Below, piece by piece: positions 50,372-59,455 of a DNA stretch of 64,000 nucleotides (positions are counted from its first letter, which is position 1; every line of letters begins with the position of its first letter). The stretch covers positions 55,353 to 119,352 of the forward strand of contig CAWBRF010000037.1 of NCBI GenBank assembly GCA_963791075.1. The letters run 5' to 3'. The stretch comes from an uncultured Planctomycetia bacterium (lineage in GTDB: Bacteria; Planctomycetota; Planctomycetia; Pirellulales; Thermoguttaceae). Made by a program: the position numbers and the translations under genes. Below the pieces are notes generated by a model. That model saw nothing but the letters and a program-made list of their open reading frames with translations, was not told where the DNA came from and ran no database searches.

Positions 50372-51118
50372 GAAGTTCTGCGCTGTGTTCCTGATTGGGC
50401 ACGTCGGCCGATGAATCATATCCTGTGCGACGGGCGACACGCCCGGACGGCACGAATGGGTGACTATCAGTGCGCGTTTTTCAAGAAATGAGGGAGCGAC
50501 GAAAACCGATGGAACGCACAACGCGGCGGCAGCCATCCATGCCGAGGCATTTCGGCGAATCCATTCGCCGACCAGGGGGCTCATTGCCGCCCCCTGGACC
50601 CCGGCTAGCCTCCCTCCGTTCCGGAGTTGTTGTCATTCCAGAAAAACCGAAAACCGGGGCCTTGTGCCATGCGCCACTACCCCAAAAACACAAAGGGCCG
50701 GATTCTGCGGTTCACCGCAGCCGATCTTCTGGCCGTGAAATGAGCATCCGGGCAGGCTGGGACGGCCTATCGGGTGGAAGAGTTCGCCCGGCTCCGCCGG
50801 GCACATACACGCCCTCCTTTCTGGTCCCTTGGCGTCCGGTCCTGTTTCCCTCTGCAACTACGCCGCCGCCGCGTCCCTTCGACTGCCCAGACCCAGCGCC
50901 AGGCATGTCTGACGCGGCAGCAGCACGATTCCGTTGTCGATGTGGCCGGCGGTCGGTCCACTGCCGCCAAGCCGCCCTGCTGCATGACGCAACGGGGCCG
51001 GGCACAAGGCCAGTGTTGGCAACGATGATGCTGGCAGGCGCCCGCCATCACGGCAGTACGAGGCTGTAGTGGGCTATTGCGGCCGTTTGCCGGTACAACC
51101 TGACTTCGCGGGACTAGA

Positions 51119-51669
51119 TCAGCCATCGAAGGTAATAAACTCGGCTGGCACCCGATCAGCTAGCCAAACCTTTTCGTTGCCCTCGTAGAAACGGACCCCG
51201 CTGGCGTGGGCGTCTCGCGCAAGACCCGCAGAATCACTGGCTGTGGCGATTTTCGGCGGCCAACCTCCGCCGCTGTTGCTGCATCAACGGACAGGTGAAC
51301 ATACTGCCGACCCATTGGCAACAGCCCCGACGATCTGATGCACGAGACATTGGCTGGGGCCGTCCCGTGATAAAGCAGGTCCGGCGGAATGGCGGGTGTC
51401 TCACGCAGTCGGACGGGAATAGAGTGGCCGTAAAGGGCGCGAATCCTGCCGTCGCTGATTTCGTGACGGCGCTTAGAGGACACTGCGATCATGTCGGCAA
51501 GATCAGCCTCCGCAAGGTTGCTCCATTCGCGCCGCTCACCCCGGAGAGCACTCAAGACACCATCGACCGATGTCCACCCTTCCTCGTCAAGCTCTAGCTC
51601 GTAAAGCCACGGCGCATGGCGGAGGGCATGAGAGACGGCCCGGCTCAAATCGGTTAAGTTGACTCCCAT
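51119..51669 (-). CDS. kptA: RNA 2'-phosphotransferase (Tpt1/KptA family); frame-broken near the 3' end
   Basis: MGVNLTDLSRAVSHALRHAPWLYELELDEEGWTSVDGVL...LLYHGT...YVHLS. The last ~30 codons (ARDAHASGVRFYEGNEKVWLADRVPAEFITFDG) read in another frame (change ~51222). Stop at 51121-51119. Confidence 0.8.
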
Positions 51670-52064
51670 GAACCGGCTTCCTCCGGGACCGACTCCCAAG
51701 ACTCCGCGACTAACTCGAAACAACCCGCGCTGTCGAGGTAGATCATGTAATGGTGCATTTCCCATTTGTCCCGCCAAGCCTCGCTCGTATCCGCTCTCAG
51801 TTCATCGACCCACGATGAGTTACGAATCTCCACTAGTGTATCATAAACCTCTTGAATGTGCCATTCCGTGCAGCACCGCTCGGAACGGGTTCGAGTTGCC
51901 AAAACTCGCTTGAAACGAATCCCGCTACGTTGAGCAACCCCGTTGCGGCGATAAGTGAACCGAATCGCTGGAAGACCGCCAGACAGACATAGGCTCGCAT
52001 CAGCCGAAAAGTTTGTCGATGGCACCGGGGTCTTGTAAAGCGGTATCTTGGAATTCATGGTCAT
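51654..52064 (-). CDS. hypothetical 136-aa protein, immunity-protein-like by position
   Basis: Overlaps the upstream gene by 4 nt (ATGA) and the kptA start by 16 nt. Contains ..CCTEWHIQEVYDTLVEIRNSSWVDEL...WEMHHYMIYLDSAGCFELVAESWE. No family named with confidence. Confidence 0.5.
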   Translation of the reverse strand: MTMNSKIPLYKTPVPSTNFSADASLCLSGGLPAIRFTYRRNGVAQRSGIRFKRVLATRTRSERCCTEWHIQEVYDTLVEIRNSSWVDELRADTSEAWRDKWEMHHYMIYLDSAGCFELVAESWESVPEEAGSWEST

Positions 52065-52561
52065 TGTCCCCCCGTGGGCTCGACTGTGGGGGTGCCTTGG
52101 CTCGTCAGATGGTTGTTCTGGAGTTGGTTGGTCAAGCGTGCCTCTGCCGCAGCGTCACCCGTGACGTTGACCGCGTTCCATTGCGACCTGGGGATGCCTG
52201 CCCTCTGAAGAGCCTGTGCTGATCGGGTGTTGAGGATTAACGTGTTGCCATCGCGGACGATGTATTGGATGGGAACGTCGGCCGCCGTTAGGCCACCAGA
52301 TTGCAACGCACCTGCAACGTCGTCAATTGTTTGCCCCGCAAATGCGCCCTCTGCGCTGAACGTTTCACTAAAAGTCGTTTGAGCAAAGTTCGCATTTCCA
52401 AGAACACCTGACGCCAGTCGCAGCGGTATGGGCAGACCGGTGGCATTCTGCACCCCGATTTCGGCACTCCCCCAAAGGAGGTCCGCTCCTGCCGCCACCA
52501 TTCCACCGCCAGCTCTCAGGGTCGCCGCGGCCGGCAAGAAGAAAGCAAGCTGGCCCACCAT
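52061..52561 (-). CDS. hypothetical 166-aa protein resembling a polymorphic-toxin C-terminal/adaptor module
   Basis: ..FSETFSAEGAFAGQTIDDVAGALQSGGLTAADVPIQYIVRDGNTLILNTRSAQALQRAGIPRSQWNAVNVTGD... This pattern is recalled from toxin-associated modules. I cannot name the family. Confidence 0.45.
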   Translation of the reverse strand: MVGQLAFFLPAAATLRAGGGMVAAGADLLWGSAEIGVQNATGLPIPLRLASGVLGNANFAQTTFSETFSAEGAFAGQTIDDVAGALQSGGLTAADVPIQYIVRDGNTLILNTRSAQALQRAGIPRSQWNAVNVTGDAAAEARLTNQLQNNHLTSQGTPTVEPTGGQ

Positions 52562-52627: not shown

Positions 52628-53125
52628 TCAGTGTGTCCCTGAATTTCCTCTTTCGCTTGCCTCGGCGATATTCCAAAGCCTAACGGTGGGGCAATATGTT
52701 GGGGGCCTAAAATAGCCTATAGCGACCACACGGTTGTCGGGCGATATCGCCAAAGTGCTGCCATAGCCCCACCTTCCCCTAAGGCCGCAAATCATCGTCG
52801 TGCGGTTGAGATCCCATGCATGGATGACATTCTCACGGAGGACCACGAGTAGTGACCCATCGGCCGAAACTCGAAGCCTCCGCGCTGGAACACCGTCGCC
52901 TTTCTCCAAGTATCTCCGTTCTTCACTGCGCAACTCCCATGATATTATATCACCTTCCCCCGTTCCAAGAATCACCCGGTCGTACGCTGACAAAAGCTGC
53001 GTATAGGTCTTACTCGAATCTATTTTTCCGATCCTATTCTCTGTGGGGACGACAAAAGGGGTCGGGAGTCGTTGATTTGCCCAAGCCAGCAGTGGCACGC
53101 CGCGCCCATCCCGCTCCGCCCTCAC
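52628..53125 (-). CDS. WD40-like repeat fragment (about 3 blades), probably a gene remnant
   Basis: ..ENVIHAWDLN.., ..TLAISPDNRVVAIG.., ..TVRLWNI... The annotated N-terminus overlaps the repeat element at 53045-53125. Confidence 0.35.
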   Translation of the reverse strand: MRAERDGRGVPLLAWANQRLPTPFVVPTENRIGKIDSSKTYTQLLSAYDRVILGTGEGDIISWELRSEERRYLEKGDGVPARRLRVSADGSLLVVLRENVIHAWDLNRTTMICGLRGRWGYGSTLAISPDNRVVAIGYFRPPTYCPTVRLWNIAEASERGNSGTH

Positions 53126-55641: not shown

Positions 55642-56073
55642 TCACTCGCTCGCCGGCTCGCCGCGGTCCTTCTCCAAGATCACGCGGTTGCCTTCGGCGC
55701 TGTACTCCACCCGCGACATGAACGCCCGCATCAACATCACGCCGCGGCCGCAGGCCTCGTGCAGACGCTCGGGACAGGTCGGGTCGGGCACCGAACGCGG
55801 ATCGAAACCGCAGCCCTCGTCGGTGATCTCGACGCGGACGCGATCGGGAGAAACCTGGCAACTCACCCGCACCGTCTTGTCCGCCGCCAGCCGGTTGCCG
55901 TGATGGATGGCGTTGACCAGGGCCTCTTCCACCGCCAAATTGACGCTGAAGATGTCGCTCTGTCGCCAGTGCTGAAGCTCGAGCTGATCGAGCAACTCGT
56001 CCACCACCCGGCGGCCGGCCGCGGGGTCGCTGGGAATCACATGTTCGCTTCCCCAAATCCAATGCTCGGACAT
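55642..56073 (-). CDS. anti-sigma regulatory factor (RsbW/SpoIIAB-type Ser kinase, HATPase_c)
   Basis: ..AVEEALVNAIHHGN..., ..VEITDEGCGFDP.., ..GRGVMLMRAFM... Confidence 0.75.
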   Translation of the reverse strand: MSEHWIWGSEHVIPSDPAAGRRVVDELLDQLELQHWRQSDIFSVNLAVEEALVNAIHHGNRLAADKTVRVSCQVSPDRVRVEITDEGCGFDPRSVPDPTCPERLHEACGRGVMLMRAFMSRVEYSAEGNRVILEKDRGEPASE

Positions 56074-56112
56074 GGTTAGCAGGGTCTTATCGCGTCCGCG
56101 CGGCAGGTTTCG

Positions 56113-56466
56113 CTAAAAGGACGCCAAGGCGTCCGCCTCGTCGTCCTTGATGTCGAAGAGGCGGTTCAATCGGGTGATCGTAAAGACCTCGTAAATTTCC
56201 GGCCGGATGTTGGACAGCTTCAGCACGCCGCCGTGCGCCTTCACCTTCTTGTCCAAGGTGATCAGCTTGCCCAAGGCGGCGCTGGAAAGGAAATCGACCG
56301 TGGAGAAATTCAACAGCAACTTGTCGCGATTCTCGATCTCGACGAGTTGGAACATTTCCGCGCCCAATTCCTGGATGCTGATGTCCTCGACAATTTTGTG
56401 ATCGCGAAAGCGGACCACGGTCACGTCGCCGACTTGATTGACGTCCACGCGGCGGAAATTGGCCAT
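56113..56466 (-). CDS. STAS-domain anti-sigma-factor antagonist
   Basis: 117 aa. ..LLLNFSTVDFLSSAALGKLITL.. carries the phosphorylatable Ser context. Downstream is ..IYEVFTITRLNRLFDI... Confidence 0.75.
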   Translation of the reverse strand: MANFRRVDVNQVGDVTVVRFRDHKIVEDISIQELGAEMFQLVEIENRDKLLLNFSTVDFLSSAALGKLITLDKKVKAHGGVLKLSNIRPEIYEVFTITRLNRLFDIKDDEADALASF

Positions 56467-56661: not shown

Positions 56662-56943
56662 TCAGCCTGCCGCAGGCTTCTCGTCGAGCGTCACGATCCG
56701 TTGCCCGGTGACCTCGGCGTAAAGGACGTCCGGATCCAGGTCGGCGCCGCCGGGCCAGCAGATCGCGCCAAGTTCCCGGTTCACTGCCAATTGGGCGAAC
56801 TCAACCGGATCGCGCAAAGGAGCAAAGACTCCCTCAAAACGAATGAGCCGCCCTAAATCGACAACCCCTTCGACGCCGTCTTCAAACCGCAGATAAGCCT
56901 TGTGCCCGTCCAACGCTCGGGCTTCCACAATGTCTTTCAACAT
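56662..56943 (-). CDS. DUF2442-family small protein
   Basis: 93 aa. ..LRFEDGVEGVVDL... ...AICWPGGADLDPDVLY.. is the typical DUF2442 pattern. Confidence 0.6.
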   Translation of the reverse strand: MLKDIVEARALDGHKAYLRFEDGVEGVVDLGRLIRFEGVFAPLRDPVEFAQLAVNRELGAICWPGGADLDPDVLYAEVTGQRIVTLDEKPAAG

Positions 56944-56946
56944 GAC

Positions 56947-57231
56947 TTATGGCTCCAGGGGATCAATCCTCTCCAATGGCAAATCTTGCCGTGCTCGTTC
57001 CCAGTCTTGTTTCAGTTCCGTTCTCCGCAACGCGGCCCATTCGATAACAAGCCCCATCACCCGTGGCGACAGATGGCCTTCCAAGACCGTTAGCCTGTCG
57101 ATGGAAATCAGCGCTTTCTGGCTCCCGTAACGAACGTGGAAATGGGGTGGCGCATGGTCATTGTAGTACATGCTGACGAGGACGCCGAAGAAACGGCTGA
57201 TTTCCGGCACAAAATCACCTCCCGCGGTCAC
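56947..57231 (-). CDS. DUF4160-family small protein
   Basis: ..ISRFFGVLVSMYYNDHAPPHFHVRYG.. is the DUF4160 hallmark. The start is uncertain (possibly GTG ~57210). Confidence 0.6.
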   Translation of the reverse strand: MTAGGDFVPEISRFFGVLVSMYYNDHAPPHFHVRYGSQKALISIDRLTVLEGHLSPRVMGLVIEWAALRRTELKQDWERARQDLPLERIDPLEP

Positions 57232-57322: not shown

Positions 57323-57538
57323 ATGCTCGCCAAACTCCAGACGTATTCCCTGGTCGGCATCGACGCCCTGCCGGTCGAGGTCGAGGTGGACGTCTCGCCC
57401 AGCGGCCTGCCGAAACAAATCCTCGTCGGCCTGCCCGAGGCGGCGGTCAAGGAAAGCGCCCATCGCGTCGAGCGGGCGATCGTCAATTCCGGCTTTCAAC
57501 GCCCGATGACCCGGGTGATCGTCAACCTTGCCCCGGCG
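57323..57538 (+). pseudogene. comM: 5' fragment of comM/yifB (Mg-chelatase-like ATPase), truncated by element insertion
   Basis: MLAKLQTYSLVGIDALPVEVEVDVSPSGLPKQILVGLPEAAVKESAHRVERAIVNSGFQRPMTRVIVNLAPA. Similarity stops where ComM would normally continue (D..K.G). Confidence 0.8.
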
Positions 57539-59455
57539 AGGTGCCCATTCGTAAAGTAATGGTTTCGCCGCTAACAGGCACGATTTCAACCCTGTCCAGG
57601 AAGCTTTTTCTAAGCATCCGCCGCCCTTTTTGGTCTGTATATCGGAAGTGGCACAAAATGCGGTCAATCACACCCCGCAACGCTTCCGTTTTCTGCCGTC
57701 CGCCCCCGCTTTTGCTGGTTGCTTTCAAGGCGTTGTCGTTCGCTGCGCGCCTCCCAACCAGTTCCGCCATTAGGTCGCTCCAAGGTACGCGCAGGTCTTC
57801 AGCTTGCTGACGTAGGTTGTCGATCTCGGCTTGCAACGCTTCCATTTTCTCATTGGCCCTGCCCCGGACTTTGGCGCTAAGGCCCCGGAAGTCCTCAACC
57901 ATCCCGTCAAGCTCGGCTTCCTTCGCTTGGACGGCCTTTTCGATACGGGGTCGGACGCGCTCATAAAGCAAGGCGTACACATCGTCAAAGGTTGGCCCGC
58001 TTTCTTGTGGCGGGTCATGTCATCTCGCCCGACGTGCTCCTCAACAAATTCGTGCATTTTGTCAAACGTCTCGGCGTACCTTTGCATCACGCCGCTGAAT
58101 TCAAACGCTACGGGGAGGGCCAAGCCAGGGTTCCCCGTCTCGGTTGCCTCCAGTAGTTGCCGTACCTTGGGGGCAGTCGCCTTCAGGTAGTCTAGGACGA
58201 TTCGCTCCAAGACATCGTGCGCGACACGGTGGCATCGACAACCAGCCGGGTTCGTCTGCCCATACGTTGCGTAGGTGCCGCATAGGTAGGAAGCGACAAG
58301 GTATGGCGTCGAATCGCCCCGACAAGCGCGCATCGGCTTCCCACATCCTCCGCAGATTAGAAAGGGCTTCAGCCACAATTCTTCCGTGTTGGGCGGTCGC
58401 TTCAGCCGCTTGCCTTGCTCTGTGCTGGCAACCTGTATCTTGGCTTGTACCTTCTCCCAAATCGGAAGCGGGACCATCGGCTTATATTCCGGCTTGTCGG
58501 GCTGGATGAAGTCGGCGGCAGTGCGCCGACGGTTGGCCGCGACGTGGCCATTGGTGCGAACTACTTCGCGCACTTTTCCGCCGACGCATTCCATGAATCG
58601 ACTGCCCGCCCGCTTGTTCCAAGTGGGCAAGCCGATGTACGCGGGATTTCGCAACATGCTCAACATTCCCGTTTTGTGCCAAGCCACGTTGAATATCGGA
58701 TCGACCTTCAGCGCGTTCATACGGTCGGCCAACATCCGCGGGCTGATGGCTTCCGTAGCGTACCACTTAAATGCCTGGACTGCCCACTTGACGCGCTCTG
58801 TTTCGATTGACGGCCGAATGCGCAGCGTATCGGTAGGGTCTTTGCGCGGCGCGTTGTCCTTCCCGTCGAACTGCTCCCGCTTCCCGTCGGGATAGACTTT
58901 CCACCGTTTGAAATGCCCGACGTACACCGTTCGCCACTTCTCGCGCCCGGCGGAATCAAAGCAAACCACGTCGCAACCAAACGGCGGGTAGCCCCCTTGG
59001 TATTCCCCCTTGGCAGCGTGTCCGATCTTGCCCGTGATGTTCCGGTGGGCTTTCTCTTTCTGTTCGCGCGTGCTGGTGATTGCGCCAAGCGTTCCGGTCA
59101 AGATTGAAACATCGTCATCGCCCGACAACACCTTGCCGTCAGCATCGACAAGGGCCGTCCCATGTTCGCGTAACAGGCTGATGAATTTTCCCCATTGGTA
59201 GGCGTCCGCCACTCCGAAGCGGTCTTGCCGATCTACCACGATTTTATCGAGCAAGCCGGCTTGAACCGCTTTCAAGAGGCGTTGAAAATCAGGGCGTTTG
59301 TCGGGCTGGTCGCGCGGGTTTTTTCCCTCCGCGTCCCGAAACCAGAATGCAATCGTGAAACCCGATGCTTTGATGCGCCGCTCCTGCCGCGCTGTTTCCT
59401 GCTTATCGGAAGACACCCTGATATAGGCCGCCGTCGCTCTGCCGTTCTCTCGCAT
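57522..59455 (-). CDS. large serine recombinase; one frame change
   Basis: N-terminal resolvase domain (AAYIRVSSDKQ.., ..VVDRQDRFGV). Recombinase and zinc-ribbon region (..CGGCGKPM..). The C-terminal coiled coil is in ORF 57522..57980 (change at the A/T run 57988-57990). The last ~5 codons read into comM sequence. Confidence 0.85.

Follow-up and report, generated by a model that had tools for sequence, protein, structure and literature searches.

We analysed a 64,000-nucleotide (nt) stretch of DNA from an uncultured Planctomycetia bacterium (GenBank assembly GCA_963791075.1, contig CAWBRF010000037.1, positions 55,353 to 119,352; hereafter the window) and describe a locus of three overlapping reverse-strand genes, which we call A, B and KptA. 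With high confidence, we interpret this locus as a toxin-immunity cassette in which the 2'-phosphotransferase KptA/Tpt1 is a conserved accessory. The A-B(-KptA) order is not peculiar to this contig and recurs in dozens of unrelated genomes. A preliminary description of the stretch had reported three overlapping genes with KptA/Tpt1 as the third, and both statements are borne out. The coordinates of the open reading frames (ORFs) give overlaps of 4 nt, where the ATG of B overlaps the TGA of A (ATGA), and of 16 nt, the KptA ATG at 51669 lying 16 nt inside B, whose stop codon ends at 51654. The third gene matches the Pfam family PF01885 with an E-value of 9.8e-27 and 94.6 bits (cut-off 26), and the Arg-His-Arg-Arg catalytic tetrad is present as R17, H18, R77 and R121. 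The parts of the locus are as follows.

52061..52561, reverse strand: gene A, 166 amino acids (aa), an orphan polymorphic-toxin C-terminal cassette, from the ORF list.
52064-52399, reverse strand: toxin domain of gene A (residues ~55-166), with a predicted ParB/sulfiredoxin fold, from the family alignment, AlphaFold2 (AF2) and Foldseek.
51654..52064, reverse strand: gene B, 136 aa, acidic, the predicted cognate immunity protein.
51160..51669, reverse strand: KptA/Tpt1 ORF as sequenced, from its ATG, with the PF01885 match.
51221..51669, reverse strand: 5' part of KptA in the original frame (residues 1 to ~150), matching PF01885 and including the catalytic tetrad.
51119..51220, reverse strand: 3' part of KptA (ARDAHASGVRFYEGNEKVWLADRVPAEFITFDG*) in another frame, from translation and DNA alignment with relatives.

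Gene A has no match in Pfam, NCBIfam or PADLOC, and 69 members of its family are likewise without a Pfam match. Its C-terminal ~112 residues form a strongly conserved module that retains 60-80% identity across phyla. A word-indexed search returned 255 relatives, several of which are annotated as RHS proteins or filamentous haemagglutinins or contain RHS/PT-HINT Pfam domains. An exhaustive search with a profile of the domain yielded 1,289 cluster representatives at E<=1e-3, 452 of them reaching E<=1e-30. Proteins of 117 to 5282 aa have the domain at their extreme C-terminus, and these carriers contain RHS repeats, the RHS core, PT-HINT or FHA/VENN regions. The carriers in the genome loci are mostly RHS proteins, and inspection of the alignment revealed that the module is preceded in relatives by RHS-core motifs ending in D(P/L)xG(L/H). 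On plasmids of Burkholderia ambifaria MC40-6 (pBMC401) and Duffyella gerundensis the carrier is instead a CdiA-type haemagglutinin, and in the Duffyella CdiA the domain follows a VENN demarcation motif (AVENN). The preliminary description had likened the 166-aa protein to toxin C-terminal regions on the basis of a core peptide, which is present in the sequence, and the family surveys uphold this: the module always ends RHS, CdiA/filamentous-haemagglutinin or PT-HINT proteins, follows DPxGL or VENN motifs, and does not place the protein in a non-toxin family. Since the domain terminates these carriers throughout the surveys, A is judged to be a genuine polymorphic-toxin C-terminal warhead, whose toxicity is itself a prediction.

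The family of B consists of stand-alone proteins of ~125-135 aa without annotation. B has no Pfam, NCBIfam or PADLOC match, and a search with its profile against PDB sequences found nothing meaningful. Among the 74 genome loci, which were collected via the A toxin domain, B lies directly downstream of A in 63 by tblastn and in 69 by an iterated hidden Markov model, in keeping with the immunity position that had been proposed for the 136-aa protein; the five loci without a detected B are cut contigs or fragments. At two Bacteroidota loci a diverged B is convergent and follows KptA. In 80 metagenome loci centred on B, A is upstream in 58, absent despite sufficient room in 17, and cut off in 5. 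Given the constant adjacency to A, the small and acidic nature of the protein and its co-variation with the toxin, we read B as the predicted cognate immunity protein, which presumably blocks A by binding.

To define the linkage of KptA to this pair, we considered as informative those genome loci that contain B and extend for 700 nt or more downstream of it. KptA adjoins B in 53 of these 66 loci, which come from more than 10 phyla, and the co-conservation on which the preliminary description depended is thereby seen in many phyla. The KptA-linked loci belong to the Planctomycetota, Acidobacteriota, Actinomycetota, Bacillota (including four Streptococcus sanguinis genomes), Bacteroidota, Chloroflexota, Fibrobacterota and several proteobacterial classes. 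Every major clade of the A toxin-domain tree contains loci with KptA, and the R-H-R-R tetrad is kept in 50 of the 53 toxin-linked KptAs. In the 39 co-directional loci the B stop and the KptA start overlap in 32 and lie 0-11 nt apart in 7. Two lineages of KptA accompany the same A-B pair. The co-directional KptAs are of the Clostridium thermocellum/window type (47-80% identity to the window type and 33-40% to the Runella-like 7kw8), while the convergent KptAs are Runella-like (45-57% identity to 7kw8 and 36-46% to the window type) and include those of the CdiA loci on Burkholderia ambifaria pBMC401 and the Duffyella plasmid. This implies two recruitments of KptA or one replacement, which makes hitch-hiking hard to argue. 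Chance adjacency of KptA and A-B was ruled out on the basis of the two lineages, the spread over more than 10 phyla and the gene overlaps. A search around the module for a fourth conserved gene (ligase, 2H, cyclic phosphodiesterase, polynucleotide kinase, macro or Nudix) found none that is co-conserved; the only recurrent extras are antisense shadow ORFs, further RHS orphan cassettes and mobile-element genes. A multi-step pathway of end-healing is disfavoured by the lack of a co-conserved ligase, 2H, macro or Nudix gene.

We characterized the structural relatedness of A and B via AF2 models and Foldseek, a comparison already proposed in the preliminary description. The ParB/sulfiredoxin (ParB/Srx) fold is found in several enzymes that act on nucleotides: sulfiredoxin is an ATP phosphotransferase, SerK and SbnI are kinases, and ParB is a CTPase. 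The A domain was modelled with a predicted local distance difference test score (pLDDT) of 93.3 and a predicted template modelling score of 0.85, and the top 16 matches of the model in the PDB were all ParB/Srx-fold proteins. The best of these were KorB (probability 0.98) and Arabidopsis sulfiredoxin (probability 0.93, root-mean-square deviation of 3.4 Å over 70 residues), followed by Noc, several ParBs and human sulfiredoxin. In BFVD, a database of predicted viral structures, the top matches were ParB-like nuclease, ParB/Sulfiredoxin and DndB-like proteins. The secondary structure elements of A occur in the order helix, beta-hairpin, helix, strand, helix. The invariant residues include S69 and N111-T112-R113, the latter at the start of the helix that follows the beta-hairpin. 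By this placement, made without a residue-level alignment, N111-T112-R113 would occupy the position of the GERR motif of ParB and the GCHR motif of sulfiredoxin. The models thus point to a ParB/sulfiredoxin fold for the A domain, a scaffold that is predicted to bind nucleoside triphosphates (NTPs) and to be capable of phosphotransfer; NTP chemistry in A is likewise a prediction. In sulfiredoxin and SerK the ParB fold binds ATP for catalysis (bioRxiv 10.64898/2026.05.05.722872), and sulfiredoxin has been described as a phosphotransferase (Zhang et al. 2012, PMC3482391). The model of B has a similarly high pLDDT of 93.4, and its search against the PDB gave no fold match at E<0.1, the weak best match being the PIM7 immunity protein with a template modelling (TM) score of 0.35-0.40.

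The closest solved structure to the window KptA is that of C. thermocellum Tpt1 (CthTpt1; 6ede/6e3a, E-value 1.9e-58, ~55% identity), a structurally characterised enzyme that has been crystallised with its reaction product (PMC10622864). With CthTpt1 as the query, the best non-self match is the KptA of Ca. Formimonas warabiya (77% identity), which is part of an A-B-KptA locus (L016); other top matches are from Sporomusa rhizae (L063) and locus L020. A phylogenetic tree placed CthTpt1 inside the toxin-linked KptA clade as the sister of L016. Four further KptA relatives were found in one A-B-KptA locus, one RHS locus with an unrelated warhead, one SUKH island and one unrelated context. In the SUKH/SMI1-KNR4 immunity-gene island, represented by the metagenome contigs L080/L081 (KptA at L080 3501-4040), there is no toxin nearby and KptA overlaps the end of a 122-aa gene that is not detectably B. 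In the RHS locus, from Anaerobacterium chartisolvens (L078/L079, 3075-4037), the toxin is a 3432-aa RHS protein with an unannotated, different C-terminal domain, in which an hhalign comparison with the A profile found no similarity. From the contexts sampled, C. thermocellum-type KptA lives largely in inter-bacterial conflict loci.

For the biochemical role of the three genes we propose a repair or eraser mechanism, to which we assign slightly less than an even chance. With an NTP as donor, the A warhead would phosphorylate a ribose 2'-OH, the likeliest target being an essential RNA such as tRNA or rRNA. B would block the warhead. KptA, co-translated with B, would remove the 2'-phosphate lesions already made and would thus provide a second, enzymatic layer of immunity. 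The chemistry of A, the binding by B and the erasure by KptA are all steps that we infer. An RNA 2'-OH kinase, ArkI, that is paired with KptA as its eraser sets a precedent (PMC9095486). For bacterial Tpt1 no natural 2'-phosphate RNA substrate has been identified (PMC9095486), and bacteria are without the fungal-type ligases that form 2'-PO4 RNA (PMC11417386). Because no ligase, 2H, macro or Nudix gene accompanies the module and each KptA turnover costs one NAD+, rare and highly toxic lesions are favoured over a bulk metabolite as the target. We put forward more tentatively, as a possibility that is rather less probable than the mechanism itself, that A warheads could be the first toxins to kill via phosphorylation of RNA 2'-OH groups, with KptA as an eraser-type immunity enzyme.

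Several observations weigh against this proposal. The fold match of A is moderate (TM score 0.37-0.47, E-value ~1e-2). At the sequence level no ParB/Srx match was obtained for A, with no hit to PF02195 or to Pfam as a whole and an empty profile search of PDB sequences, and an hhalign comparison of the A profile with an approximate sequence of human sulfiredoxin gave a probability of 0.3%. The A toxin domain is roughly neutral or acidic by sequence, not basic, which is unusual for an RNA-binding enzyme. ToxB, the only ParB-fold toxin studied experimentally, is reported to be an ATPase, not a kinase (bioRxiv 10.64898/2026.05.05.722872), and the kinase chemistry suggested for family A is drawn from its fold and gene context. 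The third gene is also variable in its occurrence. KptA is absent beside B in 13 of the 66 informative genome loci, and among 47 B-centred metagenome contigs with enough downstream sequence it was present in 13, with none adjacent in 34; this sample consists mostly of soil contigs and of the closest relatives of the window B. Thus, A-B is the obligate core of the module and KptA is a frequent, optional third gene. Furthermore, KptA enzymes of the same clade occur in other settings. The CthTpt1 gene (L075 3477-4025, identical to the crystallised protein) is solitary beside an ISL3 transposase gene, and neither A nor B was found when its locus was searched for them. At L082 a KptA of this clade follows a peptidase gene and is not toxin-linked. 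At L078 the gene order runs from an RHS toxin with the unrelated warhead through a DUF6960 (PF22283) protein to a C. thermocellum-type KptA; either KptA partners a second toxin-immunity family at L078/L079, or the cassette there was displaced. The small proteins encoded ahead of KptA in L078 (the DUF6960 protein) and L080 showed no similarity to the B profile in hhalign comparisons, and they are taken as partner families other than B.

The alternative that survives best is that A acts like ToxB, through NTP binding or hydrolysis, or on some other target, and that KptA is not mechanistically tied to it. We regard this as unlikely, though less so than the other alternatives. ToxB, a ParB-fold toxin of contact-dependent growth inhibition (CDI), is toxic via ATP binding and hydrolysis (bioRxiv 10.64898/2026.05.05.722872), and a role in signalling through ADP-ribose cyclic phosphate (ADPR>p) has been proposed for Tpt1 (PMC10622864). 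The absence of KptA from many A-B loci and its presence elsewhere, alone or with other genes, are what would be expected of an untied companion. However, hitch-hiking leaves unexplained why two KptA lineages in different orientations are found with the same A-B pair, why the overlap of the B stop and KptA start is so widely kept (32/39), and why the link is found in more than 10 phyla, with RHS as well as CdiA carriers.

It is less probable still that A, as an RNase or an enzyme of another kind, generates RNA ends with a 2',3'-cyclic phosphate or a 2'-phosphate and that KptA has an end-healing role, in which terminal or junction 2'-phosphates are taken off and host ligases can then rejoin the RNA. 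Munir and colleagues reportedly described in 2019 the removal of terminal 2'/3' phosphates by some Tpt1 enzymes, which would suit such a role. A clean-up function after RNA cleavage by metal-independent RNases has also been ascribed to KptA (PMC9503650), and ParB-domain toxins were first predicted to be nucleases (PMC3482391). On the other hand, no gene for a 2H or cyclic phosphodiesterase, a polynucleotide kinase or an RNA ligase is co-conserved with the module, and those ParB/Srx enzymes whose chemistry is known transfer or hydrolyse NTP phosphates and do not carry out RNA transesterification. A further alternative, which we rate marginally lower and hold to be improbable, is that A phosphorylates or consumes a small nucleotide (converting NAD(H) to NADP(H), or acting on another cofactor with a 2'-OH) and that KptA returns the unphosphorylated form. 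A small-molecule substrate would be in keeping with the small size and non-basic character of the A domain, and SerK and SbnI demonstrate that the ParB/Srx fold can phosphorylate small molecules. For archaeal Tpt1, NADP(H) and 2',5'-ADP serve as donors of a 2'-phosphate that is passed to NAD+ (PMC10622864). Yet, as the reaction scheme in the same paper implies, each KptA turnover destroys one NAD+, so that reversal on an abundant metabolite would drain the pyridine-nucleotide pool and not rescue it.

The least probable alternative, to which we give very little credence, is that KptA is a second toxic effector that ADP-ribosylates 5'-phosphate ends, or a regulator that modifies A or B: although Tpt1/KptA enzymes ADP-ribosylate 5'-phosphorylated RNA and DNA in vitro and KptA-like exotoxins have been speculated about (PMC11833690; PMC8120803), the KptA of the module is always a stand-alone protein of ~180 aa without any signal region or any trafficking, PAAR, RHS or LXG region. 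Its gene follows the immunity gene, with which it is co-translated, and is found in an immunity-gene island as well; the enzyme retains the canonical 2'-phosphotransferase tetrad and groups with CthTpt1. A delivered-effector role for KptA was rejected, given its immunity position and the missing trafficking region. A repair or eraser role fits better than an effector role, since KptA lacks a delivery domain, occupies the place of an immunity gene, is translationally coupled to B and occurs in immunity-gene islands.

Enzymatic or bifunctional immunity that reverses the covalent modification made by a toxin, in addition to or in place of a block of the toxin, is established for Tre1-Tri1, DarT-DarG and toxSAS toxins with a small alarmone hydrolase. 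In those systems the erasers are ADP-ribosyl- or pyrophosphate-hydrolases, whereas here the candidate is an NAD+-dependent 2'-phosphotransferase and the layers of immunity would be split over two co-translated genes, B and KptA. Among described warheads, A most resembles the Tox-ParBL1/Tox-ParB domains, which have a ParB fold at the C-terminus of RHS and filamentous-haemagglutinin toxins (PMC3482391). Their published signature is a conserved N-terminal Ser together with [NT][RT][RT] in place of DGHHR (PMC3482391). A fits this pattern by virtue of its invariant S69 and N111-T112-R113, a comparison made by description and without an alignment to the type member NGK_2271. However, the immunity partners listed for Tox-ParBL1 are Imm-SUKH and Imm44 and not the B family, and no link to KptA is described (PMC3482391). 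CdiA-ToxB/iToxB is likewise a ParB-fold CDI warhead with a small downstream immunity protein and orphan cassettes (bioRxiv 10.64898/2026.05.05.722872). ToxB was found via PF02195 and is rare, occurring in 52 species that are mostly Enterobacterales, whereas A has no PF02195 match, ~1,300 cluster representatives and an association with KptA; the ToxB preprint contains no mention of KptA or Tpt1. The identification of A as ToxB was rejected because A has no match to PF02195, the model that detects the ParB N-terminal domain of ToxB with its Box I-III motifs; A is taken as a different family with the same fold. The proposed chemistry most resembles that of ArkI and KptA, an ATP-dependent RNA 2'-OH kinase and an NAD+-using eraser that act on tRNA 2'-phosphouridine (Ohira et al. 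2022, PMC9095486). ArkI differs in being a protein-kinase-like housekeeping enzyme, not homologous to A, that makes a beneficial modification and belongs to no toxin-immunity cassette. In the literature searched we found no mention of an A-B-KptA module or of KptA as a coupled member of a toxin-immunity system, although an earlier mention cannot be excluded. Taken together, polymorphic toxins, warheads with a ParB fold and immunity through enzymatic reversal each have known precedents, while KptA in such a cassette apparently has none, as far as the searched literature goes.

Tpt1/KptA enzymes are widespread in bacteria. The roles currently proposed for bacterial Tpt1 lie in NADP(H) metabolism or in ADPR>p signalling (PMC10622864). 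The module offers a concrete alternative, namely a KptA made together with the predicted immunity protein against a delivered toxin, the fold of which is capable of phosphotransfer. If the eraser mechanism is true, it would provide the first physiological substrate for bacterial Tpt1, one native job of which would be eraser-type immunity, and it would explain the conservation and mobility of C. thermocellum-type Tpt1. RNA 2'-phosphorylation would then join the chemistries of toxins, and NAD+-dependent dephosphorylation the mechanisms of immunity. The proposal is directly testable in cultured carriers of the module, which include Burkholderia ambifaria MC40-6 (pBMC401), Streptococcus sanguinis, Sporomusa rhizae and Ca. 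Formimonas warabiya.

Two features mark the window copy of the module. Only ~50 unrelated residues precede the A domain, with no RHS or CdiA region upstream and no demarcation motif, and for this reason the cassette is classed as an orphan. In addition, the reading frame of KptA is broken. The frame as sequenced ends at 51160, and the canonical C-terminal 33 residues, ARDAHASGVRFYEGNEKVWLADRVPAEFITFDG, are encoded in another frame at 51119..51220. In a DNA alignment with L001 and L003, the closest relatives, and with L007, one base proves to be missing after GTCTT at ~51220/51221, where L001 has TTG and L003 has TTT. This 1-nt deletion moves the last 34 codons out of frame, while the relatives align full-length across the site, and the truncated ORF falls under the NCBIfam equivalog cut-off (135 against 231 bits). 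The one coordinate of the preliminary description that has to be corrected is therefore the KptA end at 51119, which silently crosses the frameshift; the unbroken ORF stops at 51160. A neighbouring gene for a sigma-54-dependent activator (49104-50491, forward strand) is split as well, with PF00158 positions 1-100 and HTH_8 in one frame and positions 109-168 in another. The split of this gene by at least two frameshifts indicates an indel-prone assembly or a pseudogene. Since both KptA and the activator at 49.1-50.5 kb are affected, either the assembly is indel-prone or the whole islet is decaying. With no delivery domain and a 1-nt frameshift in KptA, the window copy would be an orphan cassette that is either stored or decaying, or else its KptA frameshift is an assembly error. 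The most fitting view of it is that of an orphan cassette, perhaps one that is eroding, and its value is that of a pointer to the family. A second decayed KptA in the module was seen in Microbulbifer sp. (L011 4093-4634), where the convergent KptA beside the A-B pair is in two frames.

The cassette lies in an islet of lower guanine-plus-cytosine content (0.57-0.61 over 51.0-53.0 kb against ~0.65 in the flanks), and the nearest relatives of A, B and KptA are from Thermoguttaceae and other Planctomycetota, at ~80% identity. A scan of 50.8-52.9 kb for promoters and terminators found none. On one side the cassette is flanked by the broken sigma-54 activator and a tRNA-Leu gene, and on the other by ordinary metabolic genes and the following fragment.

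52628..53125, reverse strand: WD40-like fragment of 165 aa, outside the module, with weak beta-propeller Pfam matches.

This fragment is directly upstream of A, ending 66 nt away, at the upstream edge of the lower-GC islet; it may or may not be the remnant of a former carrier protein. Further along the same side, a partner-switching pair on the reverse strand (55642-56466) consists of a STAS-domain anti-sigma-factor antagonist followed by a HATPase_c_2 anti-sigma kinase, and DUF4160 and DUF2442 neighbours (56662-57231, reverse strand) form a common small two-gene module. A large serine recombinase with Resolvase, Recombinase and Zn_ribbon_recom domains is encoded 5 kb from the cassette (57522-59455, reverse strand). 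A 152-aa coiled-coil-like ORF (57522..57980) overlaps the 3' end of the recombinase gene in another frame and may be its frameshifted C-terminus. On the opposite side, the region 44771-48058 contains a weakly terminase-large-subunit-like ORF (E-value 1.5e-4), two unannotated reverse-strand ORFs (46623..47261 and 47351..47902) and the tRNA-Leu gene (47976..48058, reverse strand), which together may represent a prophage or island remnant beside the islet.

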